Assembly (NCBI GenBank): GCA_947581765.1
Contig: CANPVU010000002.1
Location: 123-64,122 of the forward strand
DNA from: an uncultured Bacilli bacterium
GTDB taxonomy: Bacteria > Bacillota_I > Bacilli_A > RF39 > UBA660
Direction: 5' to 3'
DNA length: 64,000 nucleotides
A program made the translations under genes and the position numbers. The notes below the pieces were generated by a model. It was not told the origin of the DNA. It searched no databases and saw nothing but the letters and a program-made list of their open reading frames with translations. How positions within the stretch are numbered: the stretch's first letter is position 1; every line of letters starts with the position of its first letter. Positions 53,002 through 57,092 of this stretch are shown in pieces.

Positions 53002-53964
53002 TTAATCTAAATATATTTTTAATTTCTTTTCAAGTGCTTTCATAGTAGTATTATCAACTTGACATGCAGCATTTGTTAAATGCCCTCCACCACCAAATTC
53101 TTCCATAATACTACACACATCTACATTTCCTAAGCTTCTAGCACTTATACCTACTGTTTTCTTTTCTAATTGTCCTATTGTAAAACTTGCTTCTACACCT
53201 TCTAGTCCTAATAATGAATCAGATATTTCTGCTAATTCTGATTGCATACATACACTAAGAGGTAATAAGCATATAGCGTATCTTTTCTTATATACATAGC
53301 TACTTTTTATAAAATCTGCTTTTCTTAAAAATTCTCTTTTTGTTTCTTTTAAAAGATTTAATTTAAGTATACTATCAGCACCCTCACTAACTAAATAAGC
53401 TGCTGCTTCAAATGCTTTTTCTGTTATCTTAATATTAAATCCATTAGTATCAATTTCTATTCCTGTAAGCATAATAGTAGATACTATTGGACTCAAATCA
53501 ACTTTTAAATATTTACTATAAAATGATACCAATTCTGTTATTGAAGATAAAGATGAATCTATATAAAATAATTCAGTATTTTTTATATAGTTTGGTCTTT
53601 TTATATGATGATCTAATACAATTATATTCTTTATATCATTTAATATTTCAGGATATTCTAATCTCTCTTGTAAATGTGTATCTAAAATAATAAGTAAGGT
53701 ATTATCACTTATTATATTTTTATAATTAGATTTATCTATGTAATTAAAATTAGGAACTAACGTTATTGATTGCTTAAGAGTAGTATCAAGTTCTTCATTT
53801 TTTATATCAATAAATATATAATTTTCTTTATGCATTGAGTTTAATATAGAACTAAAACCTAAACATGATCCAAACGAATCTAAATCAGGTTGAGTATGAC
53901 CCATTAGTATTATTTTTTCATATTTTTTTATCAGTATTGTTAATTTTTCAAATAAACTTTCCAT
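53002..53964 (-). CDS. DHH/DHHA1 phosphoesterase (NrnA/GdpP catalytic-domain type)
   Basis: Contains GHTQPDLDSFGS, LDHH and GGGGH. At 320 aa it has no TM, PAS or GGDEF region. Confidence 0.85.
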   Translation of the reverse strand: MESLFEKLTILIKKYEKIILMGHTQPDLDSFGSCLGFSSILNSMHKENYIFIDIKNEELDTTLKQSITLVPNFNYIDKSNYKNIISDNTLLIILDTHLQERLEYPEILNDIKNIIVLDHHIKRPNYIKNTELFYIDSSLSSITELVSFYSKYLKVDLSPIVSTIMLTGIEIDTNGFNIKITEKAFEAAAYLVSEGADSILKLNLLKETKREFLRKADFIKSSYVYKKRYAICLLPLSVCMQSELAEISDSLLGLEGVEASFTIGQLEKKTVGISARSLGNVDVCSIMEEFGGGGHLTNAACQVDNTTMKALEKKLKIYLD

Positions 53965-54050: not shown

Positions 54051-54088
54051 TTGTAAAAAAAAAAATTAAGTCATTAATTAACTTAATT
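54051..54088 (-). terminator. Terminator after the alarmone synthetase gene
   Basis: Stem AATTAAGT/ACTTAATT, followed by a T-run of at least 11 on the minus strand. Confidence 0.7.
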
Positions 54089-54716
54089 ATTTTTTACCTT
54101 TAGAAAGAGCAAGTGATACCACATTATCTGTTGAATTACATACAGTAGCAAATGTTTCTAATTGTCCTTTTAACATTTCAGCAATCATAAGATCCTCTGG
54201 TTTATATCCAATTTTATGTTCCAATGATGCCCATGCATCCATAGCTGAAGTTCTAATTTGTATTTCTGTAGGTATTTGATATGAACCAGTTGTAAAATTA
54301 ACATCTATAAGATTTCTAATGTGCAAACTTTGATATCCACTTTTTTTGGGTTCTGCTATATAGTCTTTTACCTTAACAACTTTAAAGTTTTTATTATTAA
54401 GTATTAAATTTTTTATACACTCAACATCTCTTAAAGTTAAACAAACTATTCTTGCACCTACTATATCATGTACGTGTTCTTCTATATTTTCCATAGTAAA
54501 TTCAACATTACATTTTTCAAGTTTTCCTGCAATACTATCTATAGTCTTTATTCTATACTTTTCATTTTGTATCTCATTATATCCTTCTTGCCTTATTAAT
54601 TGTCCGTACTCAATATTAACTATACTTATTTGTGCTTTCAATATATTCAATGCTGCTTCATATATATATAAATTATTTAAAAAAGAATCTCTTTCACTTT
54701 TTGTTAATTTTGCCAT
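54087..54716 (-). CDS. Small alarmone synthetase (RelA/SpoT-homolog synthetase-only, RelP/RelQ-like)
   Basis: Contains DIVGARIVCL, DYIAEPKKSGYQSLH and EIQIRTSAMDAWASLEHKIGYK. AAAGGGGAG lies upstream of the ATG at 54716. Confidence 0.9.
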   Translation of the reverse strand: MAKLTKSERDSFLNNLYIYEAALNILKAQISIVNIEYGQLIRQEGYNEIQNEKYRIKTIDSIAGKLEKCNVEFTMENIEEHVHDIVGARIVCLTLRDVECIKNLILNNKNFKVVKVKDYIAEPKKSGYQSLHIRNLIDVNFTTGSYQIPTEIQIRTSAMDAWASLEHKIGYKPEDLMIAEMLKGQLETFATVCNSTDNVVSLALSKGKK

Positions 54717-54788
54717 TATTATCTCCCCTTTTCGAGCTAATAGTATATCAAAAAAGAATAATAAAATCAAATTAAAAAAACAGAAAAA

Positions 54789-54935
54789 TTATTCGTTATT
54801 TTCTGTTTCTTCATCCTCTTCTTTTGTATTTTTTTCTTTATTAAATTCTTCGTCTATAGCACTAAAATCTATAAATATTGAACCATCTTTAGATGTATAT
54901 GTATTTTCTAACTCTTTATCTATTTTTATTGCCAT
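54789..54935 (-). CDS. 48-aa acidic micro-protein; not in the ORF track
   Basis: Hand translation gives MAIKIDKELENTYTSKDGSIFIDFSAIDEEFNKEKNTKEEDEETENNE. GGAGGAAG lies immediately upstream of the ATG. It starts 10 nt after the upstream gene's stop. Confidence 0.5.
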   Translation of the reverse strand: MAIKIDKELENTYTSKDGSIFIDFSAIDEEFNKEKNTKEEDEETENNE

Positions 54936-54945
54936 ACTTCCTCCA

Positions 54946-56133
54946 CTATTTATTTCTTGAATATTTTTTTATTAATTCTTGTTTTGATAATCTATATGTT
55001 TCTTCAAATTGATGATTACTTTGAAAAAGTGATTTATAATAATTTTCATCTACTGTTAATCCTCTTTCTTCAGTAAAGAACATATATCTTGCATATATTA
55101 AATCTAAACTCATCATTAATTTTTTTGTATCAAATAGTACAATAAAATCAAGACCCTTACTTCTTAAATAATCTATTTTTTCTTTTAATCCACTAAATTC
55201 ATATCCATATATTGTTGGAAAGTTTAATGTCATTTGAATTATTTCATCATCTGTATACCCTAAACTCTTTAATCCATTAATATGATTTAATAATCGTTGT
55301 TTTGAATAACTATATATTGTTGGACAACCTAATGTTAATTTAATAGACTCCTCATTAGTATATCCTAACGATAATAAATCATTAAATTTATTTTTCATAG
55401 CAGATTTTTTCTTACAAAAAACTGCTGGATATGCCAAAGAAAATTTTTTTGACTGTTGTAATGTGTATCCTAGATTAACTAAATTTTGTAACTTACTATT
55501 TATTAAATTAATTGAATATGTAAACAATGATGGATTTCTTTTTTCCATTTTTATTACATTATCATAAGTAAATCCTAATTTTATTAAATCTTCTATTTTA
55601 GTATTTATATAATCTATATCATAATGTAATAACGATGGTTCAGAAGAATATATCTTTCTTACATCATTTTCTTCATAACCTAAATTTAGAAAATCTATCA
55701 TATTACTTTCAATCGTTTCTGTTGAATAACCAAATAAATTAGGACATCTTACTAACATATGTAATATTTCCTTATGCTTAAAACCAAGTATTATATAATC
55801 CTTAACTTTATTGTTAATATTGTCAATGCCATAAGTAAGTACTCTAGGAAATTTACTAATTATTTTTTTTACATCTTCAATGGATAAACCTAAAGAAATT
55901 AAATTATTTATTTTATAACTTGTAGTATCATCTTTACTAGTTATAATTTGAGGACAATTTTTAAACATTTTTATTATTTCTTGATGCGGATAACCAAGTT
56001 CTTGGAAATAATTATATGAATCTATAAATTTCATTTTTAAAGTATTATTTTTTGATTTATCAAATCTATGCGTGCTCATAAATTCATTAATTTCTTGATC
56101 ATTAAATTGAAAATTCTTTAAAAGTTCTCTCAC
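54946..56133 (-). CDS. Helical-repeat protein with about 9 tandem ~35-aa mTERF-like motifs
   Basis: Repeats follow the pattern x-I-x-x-L-x-x-LG[YFL]-x(4)-[IV]-x-K-x(3)-x-x-P-x-[ILV]-[FLY]. Examples: INNLISLGLSIEDVKKIISKFPRVLTYG and IEDLIKLGFTYDNVIKMEKRNPSLFTYS. Confidence 0.7.
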   Translation of the reverse strand: MRELLKNFQFNDQEINEFMSTHRFDKSKNNTLKMKFIDSYNYFQELGYPHQEIIKMFKNCPQIITSKDDTTSYKINNLISLGLSIEDVKKIISKFPRVLTYGIDNINNKVKDYIILGFKHKEILHMLVRCPNLFGYSTETIESNMIDFLNLGYEENDVRKIYSSEPSLLHYDIDYINTKIEDLIKLGFTYDNVIKMEKRNPSLFTYSINLINSKLQNLVNLGYTLQQSKKFSLAYPAVFCKKKSAMKNKFNDLLSLGYTNEESIKLTLGCPTIYSYSKQRLLNHINGLKSLGYTDDEIIQMTLNFPTIYGYEFSGLKEKIDYLRSKGLDFIVLFDTKKLMMSLDLIYARYMFFTEERGLTVDENYYKSLFQSNHQFEETYRLSKQELIKKYSRNK

Positions 56134-56177: not shown

Positions 56178-57092
56178 TCAAATTTGCTTTTCTTTTATTT
56201 TACTAGCTAAAGCTTTTATTCTATTAAATCTATGATAAAGTCCTGATTTAGTAAGTGTTTCATTCGTTTCCATGCTTATAATTTCACTTAATTCTAGAAG
56301 AGAACTTTCAGGATATTTTAATCTATACATTGCTGCAACCTTATCTTTATCACTTAATAAATCGAGTCCTCCTGCTTCTTTTATAATATTGATATCATTT
56401 ACTTGATTAGTTGCGGTCGCTATTACTTTATCAACATTTGCTTGTTCACAGTTATTAAGTCTATTTGTCATATTTTTATGATCTCTATATATTCTAATAT
56501 CTTCAAAATAAAATAGTGCGTTAATAGCATTCATCATTCTAAGAAAATCTCCTATTTTTTCTGCTTCTTTAACATATATCATATATTTGTTATCTCTTTT
56601 TAACACTTTACTATTTAAATAATATTCATTTAACAAATCCTTAATAAAATTTGCATAATCAAAATTATCAACAAAAAACTCTAAATGATACCTAGATTTT
56701 TTAGGATCATTTACACTACCACATGATATAAAAAGTCCTCTAAGATATGCTCTTTTTGTTATATCATCATCTATTATAAAATTTTTAGGAATATTTGTAT
56801 CTAAACTTAAATCTTTTTTTATATCATCAATTTTTTTTGTCAATTCTATTACATATATATAATTTTTTGTATAATTATATCCATTACGTACACTAATTTT
56901 TGAAGATATATTATATAAATCTTTAATAGAACTAAATACATATCTAGCCACTGATGCATTTTCTGTAGTAATACTTATTGTTTTATCAATATTAGCACTA
57001 TTTTTTAATATCGCAGATAATTCAGCAATCATCTCTAATCTTTCATGGTTAAGTTTACTTACTTCATTTTTTACTTCACTTGTAAAAGACAT
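56178..57092 (-). CDS. whiA: DNA-binding protein WhiA
   Basis: Begins MSFTSEVKNEV; contains a degenerate LAGLIDADG-type domain (AYLRGLFISCGSV) and a C-terminal HTH. Follows yvcK. Confidence 0.92.
   Translation of the reverse strand: MSFTSEVKNEVSKLNHERLEMIAELSAILKNSANIDKTISITTENASVARYVFSSIKDLYNISSKISVRNGYNYTKNYIYVIELTKKIDDIKKDLSLDTNIPKNFIIDDDITKRAYLRGLFISCGSVNDPKKSRYHLEFFVDNFDYANFIKDLLNEYYLNSKVLKRDNKYMIYVKEAEKIGDFLRMMNAINALFYFEDIRIYRDHKNMTNRLNNCEQANVDKVIATATNQVNDINIIKEAGGLDLLSDKDKVAAMYRLKYPESSLLELSEIISMETNETLTKSGLYHRFNRIKALASKIKEKQI

Follow-up and report, generated by a model that had tools for sequence, protein, structure and literature searches.

A RelP-type alarmone synthetase paralogue and a neighbouring acidic microprotein gene at the whiA junction of uncultured gut Bacilli

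A small alarmone synthetase (SAS) and the short acidic open reading frame (ORF) that precedes it, here called the micro-ORF, lie on the minus strand of a 64,000-nucleotide stretch of an uncultured Bacilli genome (RF39, UBA660; assembly GCA_947581765.1, contig CANPVU010000002.1, positions 123 to 64,122). This whole stretch is referred to as the window and coordinates are those of the window unless a locus is named. An initial annotation, made from the sequence alone, asked whether the two genes represent a housekeeping RelP or RelQ or a toxSAS-type pair, that is, a toxic synthetase neutralised by a small adjacent antitoxin. The evidence presented here favours a different answer: the synthetase is probably a catalytically intact paralogue of RelP type, and the micro-ORF an independent gene of the whiA unit rather than its antitoxin. 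The two genes are

54087..54716, minus strand: SAS gene, 209 aa, RelP-type paralogue with a RelA_SpoT domain, ATG at 54716
54789..54935, minus strand: micro-ORF with orthologues, encoding a 48-aa acidic microprotein with the core Y13-T-S-x-D-G-S-I-F-I-D-F24 and a variable acidic tail

Below, L-numbers denote loci (contigs or regions) of relatives and G-numbers related genomes, the genome of the window being G000. The window SAS and its close relatives, a group of RelP-type paralogues, are called clade X.

Family and active site of the synthetase

A longer ORF on the minus strand (54087..54770) opens at TTG. The favoured start is the ATG at 54716, which gives the 209-aa product; GGGGAG lies upstream of it at 54728-54723 and the N-termini of homologues (MSTITKAERSNW...) agree. 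Pfam RelA_SpoT (98 bits, residues 55-173) is the single domain, with no other Pfam domain present, so that the synthetase-only RelA/SpoT homologue (RSH) of 209 aa first proposed is borne out. Among PDB sequences the best match is B. subtilis RelP (6fgk, 137 bits), followed by S. aureus RelP (107), RelQ (84) and CapRel (7ztb, 30). FaRel2, of which crystal structures have been published (PMC10565793, PMC11782079), was not identifiable among the PDB sequence matches even at E <= 10. The SAS scores 262 bits with the clade X profile (leave-one-out), 193 with RelP and 115 with RelQ. An AlphaFold2 (AF2) model of the monomer, built on nine clade members (pLDDT 86), has S. aureus and B. subtilis RelP as the top matches (TM-scores of 0.81-0.85 over the full length), RelQ next and CapRel 7ztb far behind (0.58/0.37). 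The resemblance to RelP and RelQ originally seen by eye is thus present in both sequence and predicted structure.

In S. aureus RelP, ATP and Mg2+ are bound by R78, K80, S84, K88, R91, D107, R112, E174 and H190, to which the G-loop Tyr151 and a RelP-specific G-loop proline are added (PMC5794853). By alignment, R78, K80, S84, K88, R91, D107, R112, Y151, E174 and H190 correspond to R55, K57, S61, K65, K68, D84, R89, Y128, E151 and H167 in the SAS, and P123 aligns with the G-loop proline P146. All the mapped active-site residues and P123 are invariant across nine clade X members except K68, a change of R to K with respect to S. aureus R91. Since the ATP-binding and catalytic residues are retained, the synthetase appears fully competent and built like RelP, not like RelQ. 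If it works as RelP does, it would transfer pyrophosphate from ATP to GDP or GTP, probably as a homotetramer, and the bifunctional Rel of the same genome would hydrolyse the product.

Comparison with the two known housekeeping types places the protein further. RelP (SAS2, YwaC; 6fgk, 6ewz/6fgj) is likewise a single SYNTH domain of ~210 aa, has the same full-length fold including the N- and C-terminal helices, and agrees with the SAS in all residues for ATP binding and catalysis, in the G-loop Tyr and in the G-loop Pro specific to RelP. The SAS is nevertheless only ~43% identical to canonical RelP, falls in a separate long-branch clade, has NEIQN for NPIEH, a 3-residue insertion and a distinctive LYIYEAA N-terminal helix, and is an accessory second copy that most species of the genus lack and that sits at the junction of whiA with a DHH-family gene and is tandem-fused in one relative. 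RelQ (SAS1, YjbM; 5dec/5ded) also has the same fold and active site, but it is matched with lower scores, the SAS has the RelP-type G-loop proline, and the allosteric E41/F42 of RelQ (NPIEF) are replaced.

The altered segment was correctly picked out by the initial annotation. Residues 47-57 of the SAS are NEIQNEKYRIK, against NPIEHTKSRVK in B. subtilis RelP and NPIHHMERRVK in S. aureus RelP. Ahead of the R-x-K strand, N-E-I-Q-N thus takes the place of N-P-I-E-H/F, preceded by a 3-residue insertion; clade X as a whole has [YN]-[STNK]-[EK]-[IV]-[QE]. Since S. aureus RelP itself has NPIHH, NPIEH/F is not a strictly defining feature. In RelQ, E41 and F42 of NPIEF belong to the allosteric site at which pppGpp binds in the tetramer's central cleft (PMC5794853). 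By analogy, the NEIQN segment would form a regulatory surface outside the active site and, because it lines the same cleft, its change points to altered or absent allosteric control and not to different chemistry. The authors of the RelP structure left room for an unidentified factor that binds the RelP cleft (PMC5794853). Control of the SAS is probably mainly transcriptional, through its own predicted sigma-A-type promoter with an extended -10 (see below), and possibly also through a ligand of the altered cleft.

The 1.22 Mb genome of the window (37 contigs) contains three RSH genes. Besides the window SAS there is a 723-aa Rel with HD_4, SYNTH, TGS, AH/RIS and ACT domains, and a 190-aa SAS on contig C9 that retains YNPIEHIKTRIK (NPIEH) and scores 175 bits with B. 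subtilis RelP 6fgk. The latter is, judged by its sequence, the canonical RelP of the genome; it sits ~130 nt downstream of a 321-aa ORF (G000 contig C9, L030:414-2082). A search of 5.8 billion proteins returned about a dozen close relatives of the window SAS, at 41-53% identity, followed by canonical RelP proteins at 39-44%. The close relatives have in common the motifs LYIYEAA..., EGY[ST]E[IV]Q and HD[IV]VGxRIVCLTL. In a maximum-likelihood tree clade X is monophyletic (support 94/87), its sister being a very divergent SAS on the whiA side of the junction in G007 (90/97), and the two together join the canonical RelP of the lineage (98/91). In this 40-sequence tree RelP is paraphyletic to RelQ and clade X is long-branched. 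The divergent G007 copy excepted, none of 19 other species of the genus has an orthologue of the SAS, and the majority of species in the genus are without any SAS. The first of the alternatives originally offered, a housekeeping RelP or RelQ, consequently holds broadly as to type, the SAS being RelP-derived with an intact active site. It does not stand as to role: the SAS is an accessory, patchily distributed and fast-evolving extra copy of RelP, the core housekeeping RelP being encoded elsewhere in the genome.

No sign of a phage-borne clade X member was seen in a tblastn search of phage records, whose hits were for the most part fragments of chromosomal RelP/RelQ genes catalogued as phage, together with a CapRel-like gene of a mycobacterial prophage. 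In L070 (5219-6610) the SAS at the junction is a 463-aa protein with two tandem RelA/SpoT synthetase domains, the first with EIQVKT and the second with EIQFRT. This locus is from a close relative, its DHH protein being 78% identical to that of the window. To our knowledge no tandem-fused SAS has been described.

The micro-ORF and its separation from the synthetase

The strongly acidic 48-codon ORF with a Shine-Dalgarno sequence, which the initial annotation reported although the ORF track had missed it, is confirmed. It starts ten bases past the stop codon of an mTERF-repeat gene, its product has 16 D+E against 6 K+R (isoelectric point 4.2), and its ribosome-binding region is

54936..54945, minus strand: micro-ORF Shine-Dalgarno region TGGAGGAAGT, directly after the mTERF stop codon at 54946-54948

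The micro-ORF is present in about ten lineages, with products of 40-48 residues and a GGAGG/AGGAG-like site upstream of every orthologue. In eight aligned microproteins M1 and Y13-T-S-x-D-G-S-I-F-I-D-F24 (the YTSxDGSIFIDF core) are invariant, and the 11 invariant core codons contain 0, 0 and 5 variable sites at codon positions 1, 2 and 3, respectively. Pairwise ratios of nonsynonymous to synonymous substitution rates (dN/dS) over the first 30 codons are mostly 0.07-0.5. Because relatives keep both the position and the invariant core, and because the substitutions in the core are synonymous only, the conservation is far beyond chance. On this comparison of sequences the micro-ORF is a genuine gene under purifying selection at the amino-acid level, not a chance ORF, as had been suspected.

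The family has largely escaped annotation. A word-indexed protein search with the micro-ORF found a single match, a copy with 98% identity, and an exhaustive profile search found two representatives of the family among 1.84 billion cluster representatives. The further orthologues came from this profile search and from a metagenome scan. On one metagenome contig, whose SAS is 51% identical to that of the window, the gene caller had placed a 44-aa gene between whiA and SAS, with a product 66% identical to the microprotein. No match was obtained in 185,579 species genomes, in forty relatives, or in Pfam, NCBIfam and PADLOC. AF2 predicts, with modest confidence (pLDDT 66), a beta-hairpin (residues 12-22), a helix (24-38) and a disordered tail. 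Tentatively, and with low confidence, we take the microprotein to be an accessory factor of the whiA locus that binds a protein and does not depend on the SAS for its function.

Between and around the two genes the following signals are predicted.

54773..54813, minus strand: terminator-like hairpin (core ACAGAAAA/UUUUCUGU) with a U-tract, -13.3 kcal/mol, z = -4.1, the micro-ORF stop codon lying in the loop
54742..54770, minus strand: promoter-like site of the SAS, TTGATT, 17 nt, TG-n-TATACT (extended -10), by motif match
54717..54741, minus strand: 5' leader of the SAS with the motif CTCGAAAAGGGGAG and the Shine-Dalgarno sequence GGGGAG at 54728-54723, by sequence reading
54053..54097, minus strand: terminator-like hairpin with a U10 run over the SAS stop codon, -14.3 kcal/mol, z = -4.0

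A hairpin with a U-run at the end of the micro-ORF is found in seven loci (the window and six others; z = -1.8 to -4.9), in which the stem sequences differ and the position is kept; at L115 there is no hairpin at the micro-ORF stop codon. The hairpin at 54773..54813 was not flagged by a terminator scanner based on G+C, for which it is too A/U-rich. In the spacer, TTGATT-17 nt-TG-n-TATA[CG]T is the sole block conserved at all five SAS-bearing loci, among them G007, where the micro-ORF is absent. The leader motif is also kept, as CCTCGAAAAGAGGGG in L004 (3975-4000) and L007 (475-500) and as CCGAAAAGAGGGG in G007; the CCTC of the CCTCGAAAAGAGGGG-like motif may pair with the GAGG of the Shine-Dalgarno sequence and so form a small hairpin that sequesters it. 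Given the hairpin at the end of the micro-ORF, the conserved promoter-like site of the SAS and its own terminator-like hairpin, the two genes are predicted to belong to separate units: the micro-ORF would close the whiA unit, and the SAS would be a separate promoter-to-terminator cassette.

The comparison of gene orders leads in the same direction. The neighbouring genes of the window are

56178..57092, minus strand: whiA (Pfam WhiA_N, LAGLIDADG_WhiA, HTH_WhiA), the upstream anchor of the micro-ORF in all lineages
54946..56133, minus strand: gene for an mTERF-repeat protein (Pfam mTERF, 147 bits), between whiA and the micro-ORF
53002..53964, minus strand: gene for a stand-alone DHH/DHHA1 phosphodiesterase (Pfam DHH, DHHA1), in the gdpP slot and followed by rplI and dnaB, the downstream anchor

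The micro-ORF always follows whiA, or whiA and mTERF. The order whiA-micro-SAS-DHH occurs in L004/L067/L068, in L007 and in L070, whose SAS is the tandem double. In the window the order is whiA-mTERF-micro-SAS-DHH, and on the contig of L072 the micro-ORF and the SAS are preceded by the end of the upstream gene. Without SAS, the order is whiA-mTERF-micro-DHH in L069 and whiA-micro-DHH in L071 and L115. In L066 whiA and the micro-ORF are followed by an unrelated gene, and in L116 the micro-ORF starts 2 nt past the whiA stop codon and the contig ends after it. Equally, intact SAS genes of clade X or its sister occur without the micro-ORF in G007 (whiA-SAS-343-aa gene-DHH), L008 and L010. The YTSxDGSIFIDF core is the same in SAS-bearing and SAS-less lineages. 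The micro-ORF is accordingly conserved upstream of the SAS in four SAS lineages and absent in G007, L008 and L010. Purifying selection with or without the SAS makes the microprotein an independent, lineage-restricted one, and since the micro-ORF travels with whiA and persists where the SAS has been lost, the two genes are probably neighbours and not a toxin-antitoxin pair.

History of the whiA-DHH junction

The DHH gene comes directly after whiA in most genomes of the same genus and in the majority of the 40 named relatives surveyed, across a spacer of roughly 10-110 nt that contains a terminator and a promoter. The named relatives are metagenome-assembled genomes filed as 'uncultured Bacilli' from rabbit, ruminant, chicken and human gut, including Candidatus Fimihabitans. 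When presence of the two genes is mapped on a tree of the DHH protein, used as host marker, all the lineages bearing the micro-ORF and all those bearing the SAS fall in one subclade (92/92). By parsimony, the history of the micro-ORF takes two changes (gained, then lost in G007) and that of the SAS three, a gain and repeated losses, one of them in L115, the closest relative of the window. The simplest course of events would be that, within a genus of uncultured Bacilli from gut and rumen, one subclade acquired the micro-ORF and the SAS cassette at its ancestral whiA|DHH-rplI-dnaB junction and has since lost the SAS repeatedly. The inserted genes and their flanks are alike in G+C (22-27%) and in G+C at third codon positions (~10%), so there is no foreign signature. 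As to a de novo origin of the micro-ORF from the whiA-DHH spacer, no recognisable proto-ORF was seen in the spacers of micro-less relatives (60-110 nt, with terminator and promoter).

The setting can be compared with the gdpP(yybT)-rplI-dnaC and yvcK-whiA clusters of Bacilli. The flanks keep lgt-cofD(yvcK)-whiA upstream and DHH/DHHA1-rplI-dnaB downstream, but here the two clusters abut directly, and their junction has taken in the micro-ORF, the SAS, mTERF and others. The mTERF gene lies between whiA and the micro-ORF only in the window and in L069 (3806-4987), not in the other micro-ORF lineages. In G007 a 343-aa protein with no Pfam match is encoded between the divergent whiA-side SAS and the DHH gene (L031:2263-3294). 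Other cargo comprises, in L066, the gene that follows the micro-ORF and, in L040 (G019), a locus in which no upstream whiA was found, a 427-aa ORF (81-1364) upstream of DHH. The junction appears to serve as a slot for accessory genes. The DHH/DHHA1 protein of the window differs from GdpP in lacking sensor domains: it has no transmembrane, PAS or GGDEF modules and matches residues 360-678 of NCBIfam PRK14538 ('bifunctional signalling protein/L9'). Candidate substrates for it are c-di-AMP, pApA and nanoRNA. The position of the SAS directly upstream of a GdpP-like phosphodiesterase is suggestive, ppGpp having been reported as an inhibitor of B. subtilis GdpP.

Alternative explanations and significance

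The second alternative of the initial annotation, a toxSAS pair, would make the SAS growth-inhibitory and the acidic microprotein its type II antitoxin, with the SAS-less loci as orphan antitoxins left after toxin loss. Such a pair would explain why the genes adjoin on the same strand, 72 nt apart, why they co-occur in four lineages, why the system is accessory and patchy within the genus, and why the SAS has been lost repeatedly, with one possible active-site deletion allele (L072). Antitoxins are non-homologous between toxSAS families and SAS toxicity is described as a continuum (PMC7229694), and the known modules (FaRel2/ATfaRel2 of Coprobacillus sp. D7, PhRel2, PhRel, FaRel, CapRel; PMC7229694, PMC10565793) are likewise patchy and consist of a SAS beside a small unannotated ORF on the same strand. 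However, the SAS is RelP-derived, and in the published assay neither RelP nor RelQ was toxic (PMC7229694). The comparison with toxSAS proteins took in FaRel2, CapRel 7ztb and a CapRel-like protein. Against all SAS profiles FaRel2 scores 16-22 bits and the CapRel-like protein 67-82 bits, neither of them better with clade X, and the best profile of the latter is canonical RelP. BLASTP of the SAS against FaRel2 (sequence from PMC10565793) gives 27.7 bits and 24% identity over 102 aa. When included in the tree, FaRel2 and the CapRel-like protein fell inside clade X, on branches of 8.8 and 5.0 substitutions/site; as the profile scores show no affinity, this placement was rejected as long-branch attraction and the two were removed. 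The arrangement of the genes speaks against a pair as well. The SAS is intact without the micro-ORF at the three loci named above, the core of the microprotein is fully kept in the three SAS-less lineages L069, L071 and L115, and the genes are set apart by a terminator-like hairpin and a conserved promoter-like site. The micro-ORF is always attached to whiA or mTERF, down to the 2-nt gap of L116. Unlike the partners in toxSAS modules, it is not co-inherited with the SAS, neither overlaps it nor is translationally coupled to it, and lies in a neighbourhood of housekeeping genes; its product is acidic and of ~45 aa where ATfaRel2 is a basic DNA-binding protein of 74 aa (PMC10565793), and PADLOC does not recognise it. 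A toxSAS pair is therefore extremely unlikely.

A connection between the genes of a looser kind would exist if the microprotein, instead of being an antitoxin, modulated the SAS in a non-essential way, its polyanionic tail lying, for example, in the basic central cleft or a nucleotide site, while another partner sustains selection where there is no SAS. Both genes have been at the junction since the ancestor of the subclade, the central-cleft segment of clade X is remodelled (NEIQN and the 3-aa insertion) and a cleft-binding factor was left possible for RelP (PMC5794853), an acidic disordered tail joined to a short structured element is typical of peptides that fold on binding, and dN/dS is slightly higher in the micro-ORF copies without SAS. 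Yet the invariant core is identical with and without the SAS, the SAS is found elsewhere without the micro-ORF, and the tail is poorly conserved and partly dictated by the terminator stem, all of which makes such a modulator unlikely. The same stem invites a reading in which the micro-ORF acts chiefly in cis, as a leader or terminal ORF: ribosomes at its stop codon would melt the hairpin and let the whiA operon read through into SAS or DHH, the acidic run perhaps being translation-sensitive. The stop codon does lie in the hairpin loop or 5' arm in six to seven loci, the 5' arm consists of the GAA-rich codons of the acidic tail, and the next gene downstream always encodes a nucleotide-signalling enzyme, SAS or DHH protein. 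But terminators that overlap stop codons are locally normal, following whiA in micro-less relatives and the SAS itself, and the attenuator reading was down-weighted for this reason; further, conservation falls on the N-terminal peptide core, under selection at the amino-acid level, and not on the tail, the downstream gene is preceded by a conserved promoter-like site of its own, and L115 has no hairpin at the stop codon. We regard this cis-acting role as very unlikely. Hardly more credence can be given to the idea that the microprotein is a recently born, lineage-restricted regulator that physically tunes the adjacent nucleotide-messenger enzymes, the RelP-type synthetase where there is one and the GdpP-like DHH/DHHA1 enzyme everywhere, possibly by inserting its polyanionic tail into the nucleotide or cleft sites of these neighbours; if true, alarmone and c-di-AMP signalling would be under a new kind of microprotein control, distinct from antitoxins and linked to the whiA cell-cycle operon.

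Several observations weigh against the interpretation preferred here, an intact RelP-type paralogue next to an independent gene of the whiA unit. The SAS reaches 109.4 bits with NCBIfam NF053588 (GTP diphosphokinase YjbM, the RelQ equivalog), for which the cut-off is 320, and is therefore not a canonical member. The promoter and terminators are predictions, of motifs that are common at the 26% G+C of this genome, and the scanned region contains 34 promoter-like sites where shuffled sequences lead one to expect 33. The micro-ORF and the SAS stand together at one junction in four lineages and may have arrived together. In pairs with the SAS-less copies of L069 and L071, dN/dS is higher, at ~1, in the N-terminal codons (30 codons, very noisy), which could hint at relaxed constraint on the micro-ORF after SAS loss. 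Lastly, L072 (619-1179), which is 99.3% identical to the window, has an in-frame 69-nt deletion in the SAS, equivalent to window positions 54418-54486 and flanked by 7 nt of microhomology. It takes out EHVHDIVGARIVCLTLRDVECIK, including the Mg2+-binding Asp84 and Arg89, and would agree with counter-selection against an active enzyme. The inactive allele may be real or, since the coverage of the contig is only 1.6x, an assembly artefact.

None of these findings overturns current understanding. The negative result indicates that a small RelA/SpoT synthetase beside a small ORF need not be a toxSAS module, and that synteny across relatives, more than adjacency in one genome, decides the question. 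The regulation of RelP-type enzymes could be illuminated by a RelP-derived subclade whose central-cleft segment is remodelled and which has even a tandem-fused form. With the microprotein comes an orphan family that is clearly under purifying selection, restricted to a single subclade of uncultured gut Bacilli and overlooked by standard annotation, and the junction between whiA and the gdpP-like gene appears as a slot in which accessory signalling genes come and go in reduced genomes.

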